A DNA stretch of 64,000 bases from Candidatus Latescibacterota bacterium (GTDB lineage Bacteria > Latescibacterota > UBA2968 > UBA8231): NCBI GenBank assembly GCA_964291625.2, contig OZ220089.1:4640001-4704000 (forward strand), given 5' to 3'. Position numbers and translations under genes: made by a program. Below, in pieces: positions 4,099-9,687 of this stretch (position 1 is its first letter; the number at the start of each line of letters is the position of its first letter). The notes under the pieces were generated by a model. The model was not told the DNA's origin and searched no databases. It saw only the letters and a list, made by a program, of their open reading frames with translations.

Positions 4099-5546
4099 AG
4101 CTTCGCGACCTGATCGGCGCGATCCGGCCCGTCCACATCGGCGGATCCCTCGACGTGGAGATCGAATCGGTCGTCTCCGATTCGCGCCGGGCCGGCCCCG
4201 GAGCCCTGTTCGTGGCCGTTCGCGGCGGACAGGAGATCGACCGCCATTGTTTCGTCGATGATGCCCTCGCCCGCGGGGCTTCGGCGGTAGTGGTCGAGGA
4301 GGACGATGAGAGTCTGCCGTCGGCACGTATCCGCGTCGACGACTGCCGCCAGGCCCTGGCAGCCCTCGCGGCCCGGCTGCACGGCTGTCCGGCCCGATCC
4401 TTCCGGTGGCGCGTCGGGGTTACCGGAACCAACGGCAAGTCGACGACTGCCCTGCTTGTGCGCCACGTCCTGGAGGCCGCAGGGGCGCGCAGCGCCTACA
4501 TCGGGACCCTGGGATTCTCCTGCGGCGAAGGCATGGAGAGCCTCGACAACACCACGCCCGAGGCCGACCGGCTGCAGGCCCTGCTCGCCAGGGCCCGTGA
4601 CGCCGGATGCGACGCTCTGGTCATGGAGGTCTCCTCCCACGGTCTGGCTCTCCGCCGCGTCGACGGGATCGACTACTCGGTGGCCGTGTTTACCAATCTC
4701 ACGCGTGACCACCTCGACTTCCACGGCACCGAGGAGGACTACCTGGCGGCCAAGGCGACTCTCTTCCGGGGTCTCGGCCAGGGAGGGGCGGCGGTGGTGA
4801 ACGCCGATGATCCCCACGCTCCGGAGGTGGCGGCAAGCACTTCGGCCCGGGTGCTCACCTACGGCGAGAGGGGAGAGGACGTACGTCTCGCCAGCTTCGA
4901 CACCCGAGCGGGCTCCACCACCCTTCTGAAGCTGGAGACGCCGGCCGGAGAGTGGTCGGTGGAGACCAGCCTGGCGGGCCGGTTCAACCGCTGCAACGTG
5001 ATGGCCGCCGTCTGCACCGGCGTCGCCCTGGGGATCGATGCCGACGCCGTGCGGTCGGGAATCGCCGCCGTGTCCCAAGTGCCGGGCCGCTTCGAACGCC
5101 TGGACGAGGGCCAGCCCTTCGAAGTCATCGTCGACTACGCTCACACGCCCGCCGGTCTCGACACGGTGCTGCGCACCGCCAGGGAGTTGACGCGGGGCCG
5201 GCTTCTTTGCCTTTTTGGCTGTGGTGGCGACCGCGACAAGGGCAAGCGGCCTCTCATGGGGCGCGTCGCCGAGGATCTGGCCGATCTCGTCTTCCTCACC
5301 TCCGACAACCCGCGGGGGGAGCCGCCCGAGGAGATCATCGATCAGATCGTCGCCGGCATGCGCGAAGCCGACTCCGCCGTGGTTTGTCCGGATCGGCGCG
5401 CCGCCATCGATGCAGCCCTGCAAGAGGCCGGCGATGGGGACGTGGTGGTGGTGGCGGGCAAGGGGGACGAACCGTACCAGATCCTGGCCGACGGACCCAC
5501 CGACTTCGACGACCGCCAGGTCGTGCGCCAGGTGCTTCGCAAGTAA
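4095..5546 (+). CDS. murE: UDP-MurNAc-Ala-Glu--meso-diaminopimelate ligase MurE
   Basis: GVTGTNGKST, NTTP, MEVSSH, DHLDFH, DYAHTP, DNPR (DAP-specific motif), AGKG. Confidence 0.97.
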   Translation: MKLRDLIGAIRPVHIGGSLDVEIESVVSDSRRAGPGALFVAVRGGQEIDRHCFVDDALARGASAVVVEEDDESLPSARIRVDDCRQALAALAARLHGCPARSFRWRVGVTGTNGKSTTALLVRHVLEAAGARSAYIGTLGFSCGEGMESLDNTTPEADRLQALLARARDAGCDALVMEVSSHGLALRRVDGIDYSVAVFTNLTRDHLDFHGTEEDYLAAKATLFRGLGQGGAAVVNADDPHAPEVAASTSARVLTYGERGEDVRLASFDTRAGSTTLLKLETPAGEWSVETSLAGRFNRCNVMAAVCTGVALGIDADAVRSGIAAVSQVPGRFERLDEGQPFEVIVDYAHTPAGLDTVLRTARELTRGRLLCLFGCGGDRDKGKRPLMGRVAEDLADLVFLTSDNPRGEPPEEIIDQIVAGMREADSAVVCPDRRAAIDAALQEAGDGDVVVVAGKGDEPYQILADGPTDFDDRQVVRQVLRK

Positions 5547-6931
5547 TGTGGCGCGACATCCACATCGAGGAGGTCCGCACCTGGACGAGGGCGGAGTGGA
5601 GAGGAGGGGAGGATCTCAGGGGGCGGCTGGCGACGGGTGTCTCCACCGACACTCGAACCCTCGAGCCCGGCGAGATCTTCGTGGCCCTGGCGGGCGAGCG
5701 CTTCGATGGCCACGACCACGTCTCCGAGGCCTTCGAGAGGGGCGCGAGTTCGGCCATCGTCGATCGCCGGCGGGTGGATGGTCTCCGGTTGACGGGGCCG
5801 GCCAGGGCGGCTTGTCTGATGGTCGTGGATTCTCCGGTGCGGGCCCTGGGCCGGATGGCCCGCCACTACCGCCGGCGATTCGACCTGCCCGTGGTCGCCA
5901 TCACCGGCTCGTCCGGGAAAACGACGGTCAAGGAGATGGTCGCCGCGGTCCTCGGACGGCGGTTCCGGGTCCTGAAGACACCGGAGAACGAGAACAGCGA
6001 GATCGGTGTGCCCCGGGCCCTGCTGAGACTGTCGGCGGATCACTCCGCCGCGGTCCTCGAGCTCGCGGCGAGGCGGGTGGGGGACATCGAGTATCTGTGC
6101 CGGGTCGTGCAGCCTACGGTCGGGGTTCTGCTGAACATCGGCGCGGCGCACGCCGGTATATTTGGATCTGTAGAGAGAGTGGCCAAGGCCAAAGGGGAGC
6201 TCCTGGACGAAATCGTGGATGAGTCTTACGTGGCTCTCGTAAACGCCGACGACTGTGTCATTGCCAGGGAGGCTAAGAGGACAAAGGGGAGACTCCTTGG
6301 CTTCGGTTGGCGGCGTGAGAGCCATTTCAGTGGGGAGGGACTCTTCCTCGACCAGGAGGGCTGCGGCCACTTCTCTCTACAGAAAACCTCCTTCGATCTC
6401 CGCATCCCGGGGCGGCACAATGCGCACAACGCACTGGCGGCCATCGCATGTGCGCGCATGTGCGGCGTGCCCCTGGGGGAAGCCAGCGCCGCCCTGGGTG
6501 GGTTCCAGCCACTGCACATGCGCTCGGCCATTCTGCAGAGACGGGGAGTGCGGGTGATCGACGACTGTTACAACGCCAACCCCGGCTCGGTCCGGGCCGC
6601 CCTGGATCTGACGGCGGAGATCCCCGTCAAAGGCCGCCGGGTGGCCGTCCTCGGGGACATGATGGAGCTCGGCGAGGCGAGCGAATCCCTTCACGAGGGA
6701 ATCGGCCGCCACGCCGCAGACCGAGTCGATGTTCTGCTGGGCACCGGTTCCCAGAGCGTGTACACGGTGCGTGCGGCCCGGGAGGCGGGGCTGGACCCGC
6801 GCCGGGCTCTTCACTTCGAGGACCGGGGCGAGCTGATCCACCATCTGGAGCAGGAGGTTTCCGAAGGCGATCTGGTTCTCGTCAAGGGCTCTCGCGGCAT
6901 GGCCCTCGAATCGGTCGTCGAGGCTTTGTAG
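5546..6931 (+). CDS. murF: UDP-MurNAc-tripeptide--D-Ala-D-Ala ligase MurF
   Basis: TDTR, GERFDGH, ITGSSGKTT, NADD, DCYNANP, LGDMMELG, KGSRG. Confidence 0.96.
   Translation: MWRDIHIEEVRTWTRAEWRGGEDLRGRLATGVSTDTRTLEPGEIFVALAGERFDGHDHVSEAFERGASSAIVDRRRVDGLRLTGPARAACLMVVDSPVRALGRMARHYRRRFDLPVVAITGSSGKTTVKEMVAAVLGRRFRVLKTPENENSEIGVPRALLRLSADHSAAVLELAARRVGDIEYLCRVVQPTVGVLLNIGAAHAGIFGSVERVAKAKGELLDEIVDESYVALVNADDCVIAREAKRTKGRLLGFGWRRESHFSGEGLFLDQEGCGHFSLQKTSFDLRIPGRHNAHNALAAIACARMCGVPLGEASAALGGFQPLHMRSAILQRRGVRVIDDCYNANPGSVRAALDLTAEIPVKGRRVAVLGDMMELGEASESLHEGIGRHAADRVDVLLGTGSQSVYTVRAAREAGLDPRRALHFEDRGELIHHLEQEVSEGDLVLVKGSRGMALESVVEAL
6167..6383 (+). ncRNA. putative long rod-like RNA structure nested in the murF coding sequence
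   Basis: Six nested stems: 6167-6184/6365-6383, 6200-6210/6348-6358, 6217-6225/6339-6347, 6231-6238/6317-6324, 6243-6253/6306-6316, 6263-6271/6293-6301; G-U pairs favour the + strand; local drop in GC at third codon positions. Confidence 0.7.
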
Positions 6932-6950
6932 ATTCCGTCTCCCGGGCCCT

Positions 6951-7065
6951 GCCGCCGTCCCCTCGGCGGCGCCGTTTGACAGGCAGTCCCCGCGCCATCC
7001 CCTGGCGCGGCCCGAGGTTGGTATCACCCTCCCCCGGCGCGTGGTTTCGCGCCCCCCTTTGTCCT
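6951..7065 (+). promoter_or_regulatory. structured murF-ftsW spacer (three hairpins, two with UCCCC loops)
   Basis: GCCGCCG-tcccct-CGGCGGC (6951-6970), CCGCGCCA-tcccc-TGGCGCGG (6990-7010), GGCGCG-tggttt-CGCGCC (7036-7053), followed by CCCCTTTGTCCT. Confidence 0.6.
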
Positions 7066-7081
7066 GACGCTGGCTCGAGTC

Positions 7082-8284
7082 ATGCCGGACGCCTCGCAAC
7101 GTGCAGCTCGCCACGTTCTCCTGATCGCCACGATGCTCGTCGGCATCGGCGTCGTCATGGTGTACAGCTCCAGCTCGGCCCTGGCGGGAGCGAAGTTCGA
7201 GAACAGCGGATTCTTCCTTCAGCGCCAGCTGATGAGGGCCGCCTTCGGCCTGATCATGATGCTCCTCCTCTCGCGGGTGCCCCTCTCTCTGTGGCGTCTG
7301 CTGGCGCGGCCCCTGCTCCTGGTGGGCATCCTGCTCCTCGTCCTGGTGCTCATCCTGGGCGAGGGCCGGGGGGCGCAGCGCTGGCTTCCCTTCGGGCTGC
7401 CCTCCCTCGCCACCCTGTCCTTCCAGCCTTCCGAGTTCGTCAAGCTCGTCCTCGTCCTCTACCTGGCAGACGTGCTGGCACGGAAGCAAAGCGACATGGG
7501 CGACTGGAGACTGGGCCTGGCCCCCCGGCTCGCGGTGATCTCTGTCGTTCAGGTCCTGATCGTCCTGCAGCCCGACCTCGGCACGGCCCTGGCCATCAGC
7601 GCCATCTCCATGGTCATCCTCTGGCTCGGCGGGGCGGGCACCTCCCACCTGGCCCTGGTGGCCTCAGGGGCCGGCTTGGTGGCGGGCTGGTCGGTGCTGT
7701 CCTCGCCCTACCAGCTCGAGCGCGTGCGGACCTTCCTCGTGGGAGCGGATCCGCAGGGGGCCGGCTTCCAGGTGGACCAGGCGCTGCTGGCTCTCGGCAG
7801 CGGGGGCTGGCTCGGCGTCGGCCTCGGCAACAGCATGCAGAAGCACTACCTGCCAGAGCCACATACCGACTTCGTCTTCGCCTTCGTCGGCGAGGAACTC
7901 GGCTTGCTCGGCGCCCTGAGCATCATCTGCCTCTTCGTGGCCCTGTCCGTCCACGGCTACCGGATCGCCACGAGGGCCGCCACCTTCCACGGATTCCTCG
8001 TGGCCTCCGGGATCACGGTGATGGTGGGGACCTACGCTCTGCTCAACGTCGCCGTGGCAACCGGCCTCATGCCGACCACGGGACTGCCCCTGCCCTTCGT
8101 CAGCTACGGCGGATCCTCGCTGCTGCTGAACCTGAGCGGCATCGGCCTTCTCGCCGCCGTGGCCCGCGAGAAGGTACCGGCCGCGTCGACGGCCTGGCGC
8201 CGGCGCGGAGAGCTGTCGCGGCCCCATCCACCAGGCACCGATGACTACTGGGTCCCACGCCCGGCACCGGCGGGCAGCCAATGA
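7082..8284 (+). CDS. ftsW: SEDS peptidoglycan polymerase FtsW
   Basis: Multi-TM; MVYSSS, QRWL, FQPSEFVK, QPDLGT, LPEPHTDF, GLPLPFVSYGGSS. Confidence 0.96.
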   Translation: MPDASQRAARHVLLIATMLVGIGVVMVYSSSSALAGAKFENSGFFLQRQLMRAAFGLIMMLLLSRVPLSLWRLLARPLLLVGILLLVLVLILGEGRGAQRWLPFGLPSLATLSFQPSEFVKLVLVLYLADVLARKQSDMGDWRLGLAPRLAVISVVQVLIVLQPDLGTALAISAISMVILWLGGAGTSHLALVASGAGLVAGWSVLSSPYQLERVRTFLVGADPQGAGFQVDQALLALGSGGWLGVGLGNSMQKHYLPEPHTDFVFAFVGEELGLLGALSIICLFVALSVHGYRIATRAATFHGFLVASGITVMVGTYALLNVAVATGLMPTTGLPLPFVSYGGSSLLLNLSGIGLLAAVAREKVPAASTAWRRRGELSRPHPPGTDDYWVPRPAPAGSQ

Positions 8285-9687
8285 GAATGCCTCTTCGGGA
8301 CCGCGGAGCCCGTGCCGGAGAACCTCTCGGGGCGGGGGTGAAGCGAGTGCACATGGTCGGCATAGGCGGCGCCGGCATGGAGGCCCTGGCACGGCTCCTG
8401 GTCGATCTCGGCTACCGGGTGAGCGGTTCCGACGCGGCCGCTGGCCCCGGGGTCACCGACCTCCAGCAGTCGGGTGTTCCCGTGCGCGTCGGCCACCACG
8501 CATCGCAGGTCGAGGGCGCCGATCTCCTCGTGTACTCCTCGGCCGTGGACGAGGAGAACTGCGAGCGCCGGGCCGCGGCGCGTCTGGGGATCGAGCAGTG
8601 GTCGAGGGCCCGCGCCCTGGGCGCCGTGAGCCGCACCTGCTATACGGTGGCCGTGGCCGGCACTCACGGCAAGACGACGACGGCTTCCCTGATTGTCGGT
8701 GCCCTGCGCTGCGCGGGGCACGAGCCCCGGGTCGCCATCGGCGGCTGGATGGGGGGGCGTCCGCAACCGACGGCCCGGTCCGGAGACCTGCTGGTGGTCG
8801 AGGCGGACGAATATCGCCGCGCCTTCCACGAACTCGAGCCCTGGATCTCGGTGGTCACCAACATCGAGATGGAGCACGTCGACTGCTTTGACGGCCGCGA
8901 CGACCTCGTCGAGGCCTTCGGCGTCTTCCTCTCCCGGTGCCGGCGCGGGGGCGGCGTCGCCGTCAATGGCGACGACGAGCTTTGCCGGGCGGCGGCTGTG
9001 CGGTCGCGGGCGGACGCGTCCCTGACCTTCGGTTTCGGACCCTCCTGCCAGGTGCGCGCCGAAGCCCTGGCGCCGACGGGCACGGGATCGGCCTTCGCCG
9101 TCCACCTGGACGGAGAGCGTCGGCCGGTCGACCTGGGCGTCCCGGGGAGGCATAATGTCAGCAACGCCCTGGCGGCCATCGCCGCGACCCGCCTGATGGG
9201 CCTGGCCTGGGAGCCGGTCTCCTCGGCCCTGCGCCGCTTCACCGGGGTGGATCGGCGCTACCAGTCCCGGGGGGAGGTGGAGGGGGTGGCCATCGTCGAC
9301 GACTACGCGCACCATCCGACGGAGGTCTCGGCCACGGTGGCGACGGCAGCGGCGACCGGGAGAAGGGTGACCGCCGTTTTTCAGCCCCACACCTACTCCC
9401 GTACGCGCCACTTCCACGAGGCGTTTGCCGAGTCCCTGCTCAACGCCCACAGGGTGTGCGTGACCTCCGTCTACGCGGCCCGGGAAAGCCCGGATCTGGG
9501 GGACGAGGGGGATGTCATCGTCGACGATCTGCGGCGCCTGGGACACCATCGGGCGCGCTTCGTGGCCGAGGCCGACCTCGCCCTGTCCCGCTCCCTGGCG
9601 GAGTGCGCCGCCGGTGACCTTCTCCTGGTGATGGGGGCCGGGGACATCGGCGACCACCTCGGGGACCTTCTGGAGGGTACGGCCTGA
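8281..9687 (+). CDS. murC: UDP-N-acetylmuramate--L-alanine ligase MurC (true start may be GTG 8338)
   Basis: GIGGAGM, AGTHGKTTT, EADE, DDYAHHPTE, FQPH, MGAGDI. Confidence 0.96.
   Translation: MRMPLRDRGARAGEPLGAGVKRVHMVGIGGAGMEALARLLVDLGYRVSGSDAAAGPGVTDLQQSGVPVRVGHHASQVEGADLLVYSSAVDEENCERRAAARLGIEQWSRARALGAVSRTCYTVAVAGTHGKTTTASLIVGALRCAGHEPRVAIGGWMGGRPQPTARSGDLLVVEADEYRRAFHELEPWISVVTNIEMEHVDCFDGRDDLVEAFGVFLSRCRRGGGVAVNGDDELCRAAAVRSRADASLTFGFGPSCQVRAEALAPTGTGSAFAVHLDGERRPVDLGVPGRHNVSNALAAIAATRLMGLAWEPVSSALRRFTGVDRRYQSRGEVEGVAIVDDYAHHPTEVSATVATAAATGRRVTAVFQPHTYSRTRHFHEAFAESLLNAHRVCVTSVYAARESPDLGDEGDVIVDDLRRLGHHRARFVAEADLALSRSLAECAAGDLLLVMGAGDIGDHLGDLLEGTA

Follow-up and report, generated by a model that had tools for sequence, protein, structure and literature searches.

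A conserved rod-shaped RNA structure inside murF of a class of Latescibacterota, and candidate pairing partners for its G-rich loops before ftsW

Conserved RNA structures are usually sought between genes. In Staphylococcus aureus, RNAIII makes two loop-loop contacts with the rot and coa mRNAs, and RsaA and RsaE are likewise C-rich small RNAs; in phage MS2 the 'Min Jou' interaction, a long-distance pairing, couples translation of the replicase to that of the coat protein. Two reports (PMC2837412, PMC3961350) deal with RNAIII and related C-rich small RNAs of Staphylococcus aureus, whose UCCC(C) hairpin loops pair with G-rich regions of mRNAs. Here we describe a 64,000-nucleotide stretch of the genome of a Candidatus Latescibacterota bacterium (hereafter the window, in whose own numbering all unprefixed coordinates are given), in which a rod-shaped RNA structure with three G-rich loops lies within murF, the gene for UDP-MurNAc-pentapeptide synthetase, and C-rich hairpin loops and other C-rich elements complementary to these loops lie in the spacer between murF and the next gene, ftsW.

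The locus resembles the RNAIII and Rsa systems in that UCCC(C) sequences are exposed in hairpin loops, here in the murF-ftsW spacer, and are complementary to GGGA-type sequences; and just as those RNAs make more than one loop-loop contact per RNA pair, several candidate contacts may be drawn at murF-ftsW. It differs in that both candidate partners would lie on one mRNA about 600-900 nt apart, whereas RNAIII and the Rsa RNAs are small RNAs that act in trans on ribosome-binding sites. Moreover, the G-rich elements of the rod lie inside a coding sequence, 700-900 nt upstream, rather than in the ribosome-binding site of ftsW, and the phylum is a different one. A possible likeness to MS2 is that a segment of the upstream coding sequence complements the initiation region of the next gene (in the window, 17 nt before ftsW), which ribosomes passing over the upstream gene would then set free, but in place of a single duplex there is a conserved rod with three loops, and only 7 of 34 lineages have such a complement close to the start. 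The display of several unpaired GGA motifs on one structured RNA also recalls CsrB and RsmZ; unlike them, the rod is part of a coding sequence, its motif is GGGGA(G) rather than A(N)GGA in short hairpin loops, and CsrA is missing here.

The rod within the murF reading frame

The features that concern the rod are the following.

5546..6931, + strand: murF, encoding UDP-MurNAc-pentapeptide synthetase of 461 aa (open reading frame, translation, Pfam, homologues)
6167..6386, + strand: rod-shaped RNA structure, in frame inside murF (minimum free energy (MFE) fold, codon constraint, covariation, covariance model R1)
6190..6199, + strand: G loop 1, CAAAGGGGAG, a 9-nt bulge, with AAAGGGGA invariant (folds of six sequences; alignment A1)
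6279..6291, + strand: G loop 2, GGACAAAGGGGAG, forming the 3' side of the apical loop of 21 nt, with AAGGGGAG invariant (fold; A1)
6330..6339, + strand: G loop 3, GTGGGGAGGG, an internal loop whose last GGG pairs with CUU via G-U, with the invariant core GUGGGGAGGG (fold; A1)

The rod is a nearly unbranched, near-continuous duplex of 74 pairs in about 220 nt. Its MFE of -113.8 kcal/mol compares with -90.4 +/- 4.8 in dinucleotide shuffles (z -4.89), none of 200 shuffles being as good, and the GC content falls to 0.54-0.59 across it, against 0.63-0.74 in its surroundings. Independent folds of five diverse relatives return the same rod with loop 1 unpaired. The original prediction, made from the bare sequence, had placed GGGGAG at 6194-6199, 6286-6291 and 6332-6337 and CAAAGGGGAG at both 6190-6199 and 6282-6291, and all of these coordinates are correct. 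It had further taken all three copies of GGGGAG to be unpaired. This holds for the first two, the bulge of loop 1 in the window fold being AAAGGGGAG (6191-6199), and for most of the third, in which UGGGG (6331-6335) is free while the following AG(GG) is G-U-paired to CUU; loop 3 also includes GGAGG. The three GGGGA motifs thus provide several GGA motifs in unpaired regions of the folds. GGGGAG has a frequency of 0.75 per kb in the coding sense strand of the genome, from which about 0.17 copies are expected in 227 nt, against the three observed.

Constraint at the level of codons is confined to this segment. In a codon alignment of 30 murF loci, obtained from a protein search of 40 related genomes, the fraction of consensus residues encoded by the same codon is 0.81-0.87 across 6179-6388, against 0.53-0.69 elsewhere (about 0.60) and 0.59 right after the segment; the GGGGA cores of all three loops are identical in all 30 loci, though MurF identity drops to about 49%. 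A search of the genomes of 185,579 species with a pattern built on motifs 2 and 3 gave 95 stretches, 93 of them with a readable flank, and all 93 fall in murF in the same frame, in host genomes of 41-71% GC. In the resulting alignment of 91 distinct sequences (A1), the GGGGA cores are identical in 91 of 91, where it has to be kept in mind that motifs 2 and 3 belonged to the search pattern and motif 1 did not. The three Gly codons of the motifs are GGG in every one of these sequences, whereas GGG makes up only 25.7% of the Gly codons of the genome. Rare codons are also retained: they account for 19 of 75 codons in the rod, compared with 20 of 206 in the upstream flank and 19 of 180 in the downstream flank, and include AGA (1.7% of Arg codons), CTA (0.4% of Leu), GTA (2.1% of Val), TCT (2.0% of Ser) and AAA (5.4% of Lys).

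The pairing itself is conserved through sequence change. In A1, 82.5% of 6586 cells are paired, compared with 41.5-52.0% when the partners are slid by 1-3 columns, and double-sided changes occur at 29 of the 74 pairs, compared with 12-18 for slid partners and 16.6 +/- 1.7 in shuffles (none of 500 reaching 29); the structure scored here came from one of the aligned sequences and is favoured over the slid controls to that extent. Pairing amounts to 88-99% in helices 1, 2, 3 and 7 and to 56-67% in the two helices at the middle, which vary from clade to clade. RNAalifold, run unaided, retained 40 pairs, 9 of which show double changes. The rod forms on the mRNA strand: in helices 1, 2, 3 and 7, 93.9% of cells pair when read as sense and 82.3% when read as antisense. 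An antisense RNA is unlikely in view of the 553 G-U cells against 42 A-C cells in the same helices.

Two other explanations for a constrained segment were considered and rejected. An overlapping gene would need an open frame, but the five other frames are each open in only 0-2 of the 91 sequences (and closed in 89-91). An insertion or mobile element within murF is contradicted by the normal length of MurF, by the equal length of the corresponding segment outside the class (219-222 nt) and by the single copy in the genome.

The rod is therefore a real structured RNA, with G-rich and mostly unpaired motifs under strong selection, as constraint, covariation and invariance together attest, and in this the original prediction is upheld. 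Rfam release 15 at gathering thresholds finds only two tRNAs in the window and nothing on the rod or the spacer. Permissive Rfam filters applied to 6100-7150 yield two chance-level matches (E 3.2 and 3.4), neither of them on the rod or the spacer, and a single literature search, which did not extend to supplementary files, found nothing relevant on a rod in murF among the papers listed. We conclude that the rod is a well-supported and conserved RNA structure inside an essential gene and, on the basis of these searches, a previously undescribed one.

Its distribution follows the class of the window. A blastn search of the phylum's 168 genomes detects the rod in 124 of the 131 other members of this class (71/75, 28/31, 3/3 and 22/22 by family), and in the ten other families a match was obtained in one of 37 genomes, as a 44-nt partial one only. 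The covariance model R1, built from A1, has the murF site as its sole match in the window's genome, at 240.6 bits. When it was run on five genomes from outside the class, three gave no match and a fourth gave two at chance level (E about 0.03) on contigs other than that of murF. The fifth, G050 of family f9, carries a diverged copy of the rod in murF (C1:2404330-2404558, locus L127; 71.6 bits to R1, fold z -3.7), in which loops 1 and 2 are retained and loop 3 and the outer stem are lost; this may be an intermediate or a decaying form. Four of the five out-of-class murF segments show no excess of folding (z +1.4, +1.3, -0.5 and +0.7).

Two observations on the distribution may be recorded separately. 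Thirteen genomes of genus g14 have a second, 37-nt match of 84-86% identity to rod positions 17-53, that is, the region of loop 1 (e.g. G141:C187:1198-1234), which may lie in a paralogous Mur ligase. Further, near-identical murF segments occur in public records titled both 'Gemmatimonadaceae' and 'Candidatus Latescibacterota' (loci L032, L075, L100 and others), the latter being the commonest title; one record is titled Planctomycetota and one Handelsmanbacteria. The labels of these assemblies are inconsistent, and hence we claim no distribution over two phyla.

C-rich elements of the murF-ftsW spacer

The spacer and the start of the next gene contain the following elements.

6932..7081, + strand: murF-ftsW spacer, 150 nt, C-rich (GC skew -0.14 to -0.19)
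6951..6970, + strand: hairpin 1, GCCGCCG-TCCCCT-CGGCGGC, 7-bp stem, loop at 6958-6963 (MFE fold; hairpin and C-rich loop kept across the genus)
6990..7010, + strand: hairpin 2, CCGCGCCA-TCCCC-TGGCGCGG, 8-bp stem, loop at 6998-7002 (MFE fold; loop kept across the genus)
7027..7034, + strand: tract CCCTCCCC, an 8-nt exact complement of GGGGAGGG (6332-6339, loop 3)
7036..7053, + strand: hairpin 3, GGCGCG-TGGTTT-CGCGCC (fold)
7054..7064, + strand: C box CCCCTTTGTCC, ending 17 nt upstream of ftsW (left unpaired by the centroid fold; exactly complementary to 6279-6289)
7082..8284, + strand: ftsW, of the SEDS family, with no Shine-Dalgarno (SD) sequence 5' of its ATG (Pfam FTSW_RODA_SPOVE, E 1.1e-97; upstream sequence read)

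The original prediction had singled out the TCCCCT and TCCCC hairpin loops, and the tract as the complement of the third G-rich motif, at positions that we confirm. The 11-nt C box before ftsW was not part of it. Both C-loop hairpins appear in the MFE fold, though the spacer as a whole folds with a z of only -2.02. Within the genus of the window the stem of hairpin 2 changes by compensatory steps while its C-rich loop is retained, and CCCCTTTG is retained in 8 of 9 spacers.

Hairpins with C-rich loops are rare in the genome and concentrated behind murF. Taking genes from a simple codon-usage picker of open reading frames, whose 4353 genes are approximate (it starts ftsW, for instance, at 7133 instead of the homology-supported 7082), we found 743 perfect hairpins within 250 nt 3' of genes in the window's genome. 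Only 24 of them carry a CCCC loop on the sense strand and 7 a TCCCC loop, and two of these seven are the murF-ftsW pair. Among the relatives, 25 of 91 distinct loci carry a perfect CCCC-loop hairpin in the 205 nt 3' of the murF stop, and none carries a GGGG-loop hairpin there. Counted by hairpin, these 205-nt segments contain 29 CCCC loops among 180 and no GGGG loop, as against 40 and 73, respectively, among the 4016 hairpins in the rest of the loci (about 590 kb). To reduce redundancy the loci were represented by 34 lineages whose rods are less than 93% identical to each other; a C-loop hairpin follows murF in 14 of these representatives, compared with 1.5 +/- 1.2 in dinucleotide shuffles, of which none in 300 reaches that number. 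These 14 representatives have 16 such hairpins between them, 12 reading TCCCC. The stems are wholly different between genera and the (U)CCCC loop is constant, so that conserved UCCCC loops on variable stems, which the original prediction had proposed looking for in relatives, are indeed present in these lineages. The C-loop hairpins are a real companion motif of the rod in about two lineages of five.

As a separate observation, the most enriched k-mer of the murF-ftsW spacers is GGTTTC, present in 12 of the 34 representatives against 2.4 expected. It often coincides with or adjoins a hairpin, as in the window, where hairpin 3 has it as its loop.

Exact complementarity between the loops of a rod and its own spacer, the other element of the original prediction, is likewise in excess. 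A Watson-Crick complement of at least 8 nt is found in 12 of 34 lineages, against 4.97 +/- 2.12 with shuffling (0 of 200 shuffles as high); at least 9 nt in 7 of 34, against 1.53 (0 of 200); and at least 10 nt in 3, against 0.39 (1 of 200). Equal-length controls from the 3' coding sequence of murF and the 5' coding sequence of ftsW have a complement of at least 8 nt in one lineage of 34 each. Seven of the 12 sites, in as many lineages, are no more than 45 nt away from where ftsW starts. The window's own CCCCTTTGTCC (7054-7064) is exactly complementary to GGACAAAGGGG (6279-6289) in the apical loop, an 11-mer that occurs at only these two places in 64 kb, where 0.04 would be expected. In distant lineages TCTCCCCTT(T) is present, which complements the invariant AAGGGGAGA. 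We infer that the rod may pair with the spacer and that such pairing may have an effect; a kissing interaction between G and C loops appears plausible.

Gene order, RNA libraries and other C-rich leaders

The window's genome has a GC content of 70% and is 95% complete. Its MurF matches the Pfam domains Mur_ligase, Mur_ligase_M and Mur_ligase_C (E 1e-6 to 1e-39), and the protein search recovered a murF homologue in 41 of 41 related genomes, the window's own included. In the class that bears the rod the order of the cell-wall and division cluster is altered: after murF come a long structured spacer and then, as the next gene, ftsW; in the window's genome mraY lies together with a murG-like gene of 690 aa on the other contig (G000:C2:717114-720300, G000 being the window's genome). 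In all five out-of-class relatives (loci L127-L131) a MraY-like start lies a few bases 3' of murF and the spacers are short. A consensus scan found no terminator-like or promoter-like site in the spacer, and terminator-like sites number zero in 5500-8500. Neither spacer C-loop hairpin is followed by a T run, and so they lack the combination of GC-rich hairpin and U run that defines an intrinsic terminator.

Four RNA runs (X1, X3, X4 and X10) contain the rod, in the form of contigs rather than reads; they may include DNA and show presence only. In X1, a metatranscriptome labelled as from sponge, contigs tile 5546-7400, and the three others hold the region of the rod. X10 contains a 207-nt contig exactly on 6172-6378, and X3 a 144-nt contig on 6178-6321 with a depth of 29.6, against 7.7-8.6 in its neighbours. 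Contig ends cannot show RNA ends, and depths sum over co-occurring relatives that share the rod; hence we count neither contig as evidence of a separate rod RNA or of its level. The uncovered parts in X4 and X10 prove nothing. Both X1 and X4, taken from separate studies, include contigs in which the rod is fused at 6167 to one shared foreign upstream sequence. These samples must accordingly contain a co-occurring relative whose rod is identical but whose upstream sequence differs, and the shared flank points to assembly breaks among such relatives.

Leaders rich in C elsewhere in the genome form no evident functional group. At least two copies of CTCCCC or at least three of TCCCC lie upstream of 50 of 2300 genes, which share no function by eye, and CCCCTTTG lies within 120 nt upstream of 9 of 4353 genes, against about 8.8 expected from a hand calculation on base composition, that is, without enrichment. 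Individual cases may nevertheless be listed. A gene that resembles Ddl by its N-terminal sequence only (G000:C1:1862140-1863243, minus strand) has CCCCCCCTTTGAC 33 nt before its start, a sequence resembling the box before ftsW; D-Ala-D-Ala ligase (Ddl) makes the substrate of MurF. An intergenic region of 531 nt between genes of 611 and 3043 aa (G000:C1:1025137-1025667, minus strand) holds 8 copies of CTCCCC on the transcribed strand and two hairpins with TCCCC-type loops, the only other such pair in the genome. Finally, a 161-nt spacer right after a RecA-like gene (G000:C1:3319308-3319468, minus strand) has 6 copies of CTCCCC, and a TCCCC-loop hairpin lies just upstream of the same gene (G000:C1:3320866-3320884, minus strand).

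Candidate roles of the rod and their implications

We favour, tentatively, the view that the rod and the ftsW leader may constitute a long-range RNA-RNA device in cis that ties the expression of ftsW to the translation of murF. On this proposal the rod would form on the murF mRNA while it is free of translating ribosomes, and its G loops would pair with the C-rich leader of ftsW, that is, with the hairpin loops and with the box near the start. Ribosomes crossing murF would melt the rod, and initiation at ftsW, or cleavage at the junction, would thereby follow murF translation. A more specific version, which we consider unlikely, is a split ribosome-binding site, in which rod and leader would act as a private pair of the SD/anti-SD type in cis: a G loop would dock on the C box before the SD-less start of ftsW and so place the other loops, including the canonical GGAGG of loop 3, beside the ftsW start codon. 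The SD function would then come from an element about 750 nt distant, and transcripts would have it only when their murF rod is folded.

A number of results weigh against a device of this kind. The co-transcription of murF and ftsW rests only on overlapping contigs of one RNA library, which may contain DNA, and the pair counts for the rod come with the advantage of the scored structure over its slid controls already mentioned. Twenty of the 34 representatives are without a perfect C-loop hairpin, among them that of genus g17, as are nine g17 species, all with short spacers; the G loops are invariant nonetheless. The C-loop hairpins can therefore be neither the sole nor a universal partner of the G loops, and another ligand must exist. 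RNAduplex energies between the loops and their own spacers are not below those for shuffled spacers (mean z -0.27; 5 of 34 below -1.64), nor are they better than those of reversed-loop decoys (16 better, 17 worse). In a swap of own for foreign loops the own loop was favoured in 25 of 34 cases for loop 2, but shuffled spacers reproduce this, matching it in 8 of 60 shuffles (for loop 1 the corresponding figure is 38 of 60), and so the two partners are not shown to covary. With reversed decoys there are likewise 8, 3 and 0 exact matches at the thresholds of at least 8, 9 and 10 nt, against the real 12, 7 and 3, which indicates that much of the excess stems from a C/U-rich composition that serves either polarity. 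Lastly, loops of 5-6 nt are small for kissing, and of the three G elements only loop 2 belongs to a hairpin loop, the others being a bulge and an internal loop.

The invariance of the G loops in lineages without C-loop hairpins is better accounted for if the rod is a platform for a ligand that acts in trans and recognises unpaired GGGGA, be it an RNA-binding protein, the 30S subunit through the 3' tail of its 16S rRNA, or a C-rich small RNA. The C-rich spacer elements would then belong to the ftsW leader independently of the rod, serving perhaps as a pyrimidine tract in SD-independent initiation or as a set of sites for a poly(C)-binding KH protein. This reading, the main rival, which we regard as possible but on the doubtful side, fits the invariance of the loops in 91 of 91 sequences where C-loop hairpins are present in only 14 of 34 lineages, it fits the energy and decoy tests, which do not single out the spacer, and it fits the clustering of CTCCCC in a few other intergenic regions. 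As regards the 30S subunit, the genome does use SD sequences, with a GGAG peak at -12 to -9 of starts and GGGGAG upstream of 124 genes against 34 in a control zone; its 16S rRNA ends in the canonical CACCTCCTTTCT, which the loop motifs match in part, and loop 3 has GGAGG. However, all three Gly positions use GGG without exception, where GGA would yield AGGAG and improve the pairing with the tail, and there is no start codon 5-10 nt 3' of any loop motif, the other sense frames being closed in 91 of 91 sequences. An SD-like role for the loops, one of the alternatives in the original prediction, is weakened by both facts. The selected feature is a run of GGGG followed by A, the complement of UCCCC, rather than the best SD. 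A protein ligand, for its part, has no candidate at hand, the genes with C-rich leaders share no function, and the clustering of C loops after murF (29 of 180 against 40 of 4016) as well as the 11-nt match are left unexplained. CsrA or RsmA would be one such protein, since GGA stands in the unpaired region of each motif, and the rod might then be a CsrB-like sponge or a CsrA-regulated mRNA. This second alternative of the original prediction fails on distribution and is very improbable: CsrA (PF02599) has no match in the window's genome and is patchy in the class (42 of 132 genomes; by genus, 1 of 9 in the window's own, none of 15 in g20 and none of 21 in another that is probably g17, many of these genomes being single-contig), whereas the rod is in 124 of 131.

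Other readings dispense with any contact to the spacer. The rod could be a determinant of processing or stability in the cell-wall and division transcript, either as an RNase III-type cut site or as a barrier to decay, and so set the levels of murF and ftsW relative to each other. A near-continuous duplex of 74 pairs inside an operon would suit such a role, as would the co-occurrence of the rod with the rearranged murF-spacer-ftsW order, given that the five outgroups keep murF-mraY and four of them are without the rod, that of G050 being diverged. Yet a cleavage substrate needs no three invariant G-rich loops, and the 207-nt contig lying wholly on 6172-6378 in one RNA library, which might seem to speak for a cut product, meets the objections that contig ends do not show RNA ends and that the shared foreign flank at 6167 points to assembly breaks; we judge this role unlikely too. 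Less probable by a good deal is that the four G runs (GGGG in each loop plus the GGG in loop 3) form a putative intramolecular RNA G-quadruplex held by the rod. Selection does keep G runs rather than an SD-like sequence, and the GGG Gly codons are invariant, but the runs stand at different heights of the rod (about 24 bp and about 45 bp from its base, and at its apex), and the A after each run, for which a quadruplex has no need, is invariant as well. There is, finally, scarcely any likelihood that protein conservation and chance alone are at work and that the spacer matches arise from composition. The segment does encode a well conserved part of MurF, and C-rich spacers easily match G-rich loops; against this, the synonymous constraint is confined to the rod, rare codons are kept, compensatory pairs are in excess, out-of-class MurF of equal length is without the fold, and the excess of C-loop hairpins survives dinucleotide shuffling.

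Throughout a class of mostly uncultured bacteria, with genomes of 41-71% GC, the rod persists in spite of codon preference. It lies where the synthesis of peptidoglycan precursors (murF) meets the division-site polymerase (ftsW), in a lineage whose usual gene order is broken. Should its loops pair with the ftsW leader, the locus would be a cis version of the logic of C-rich loops and G-rich targets seen in the small RNAs of Gram-positive bacteria, and it would couple two steps of envelope growth at the level of RNA; should the split ribosome-binding site be true, a cell-wall gene would gate a division gene. Even without such pairing, the rod is a well-supported new RNA motif that can be tested in vitro without growing the organism.

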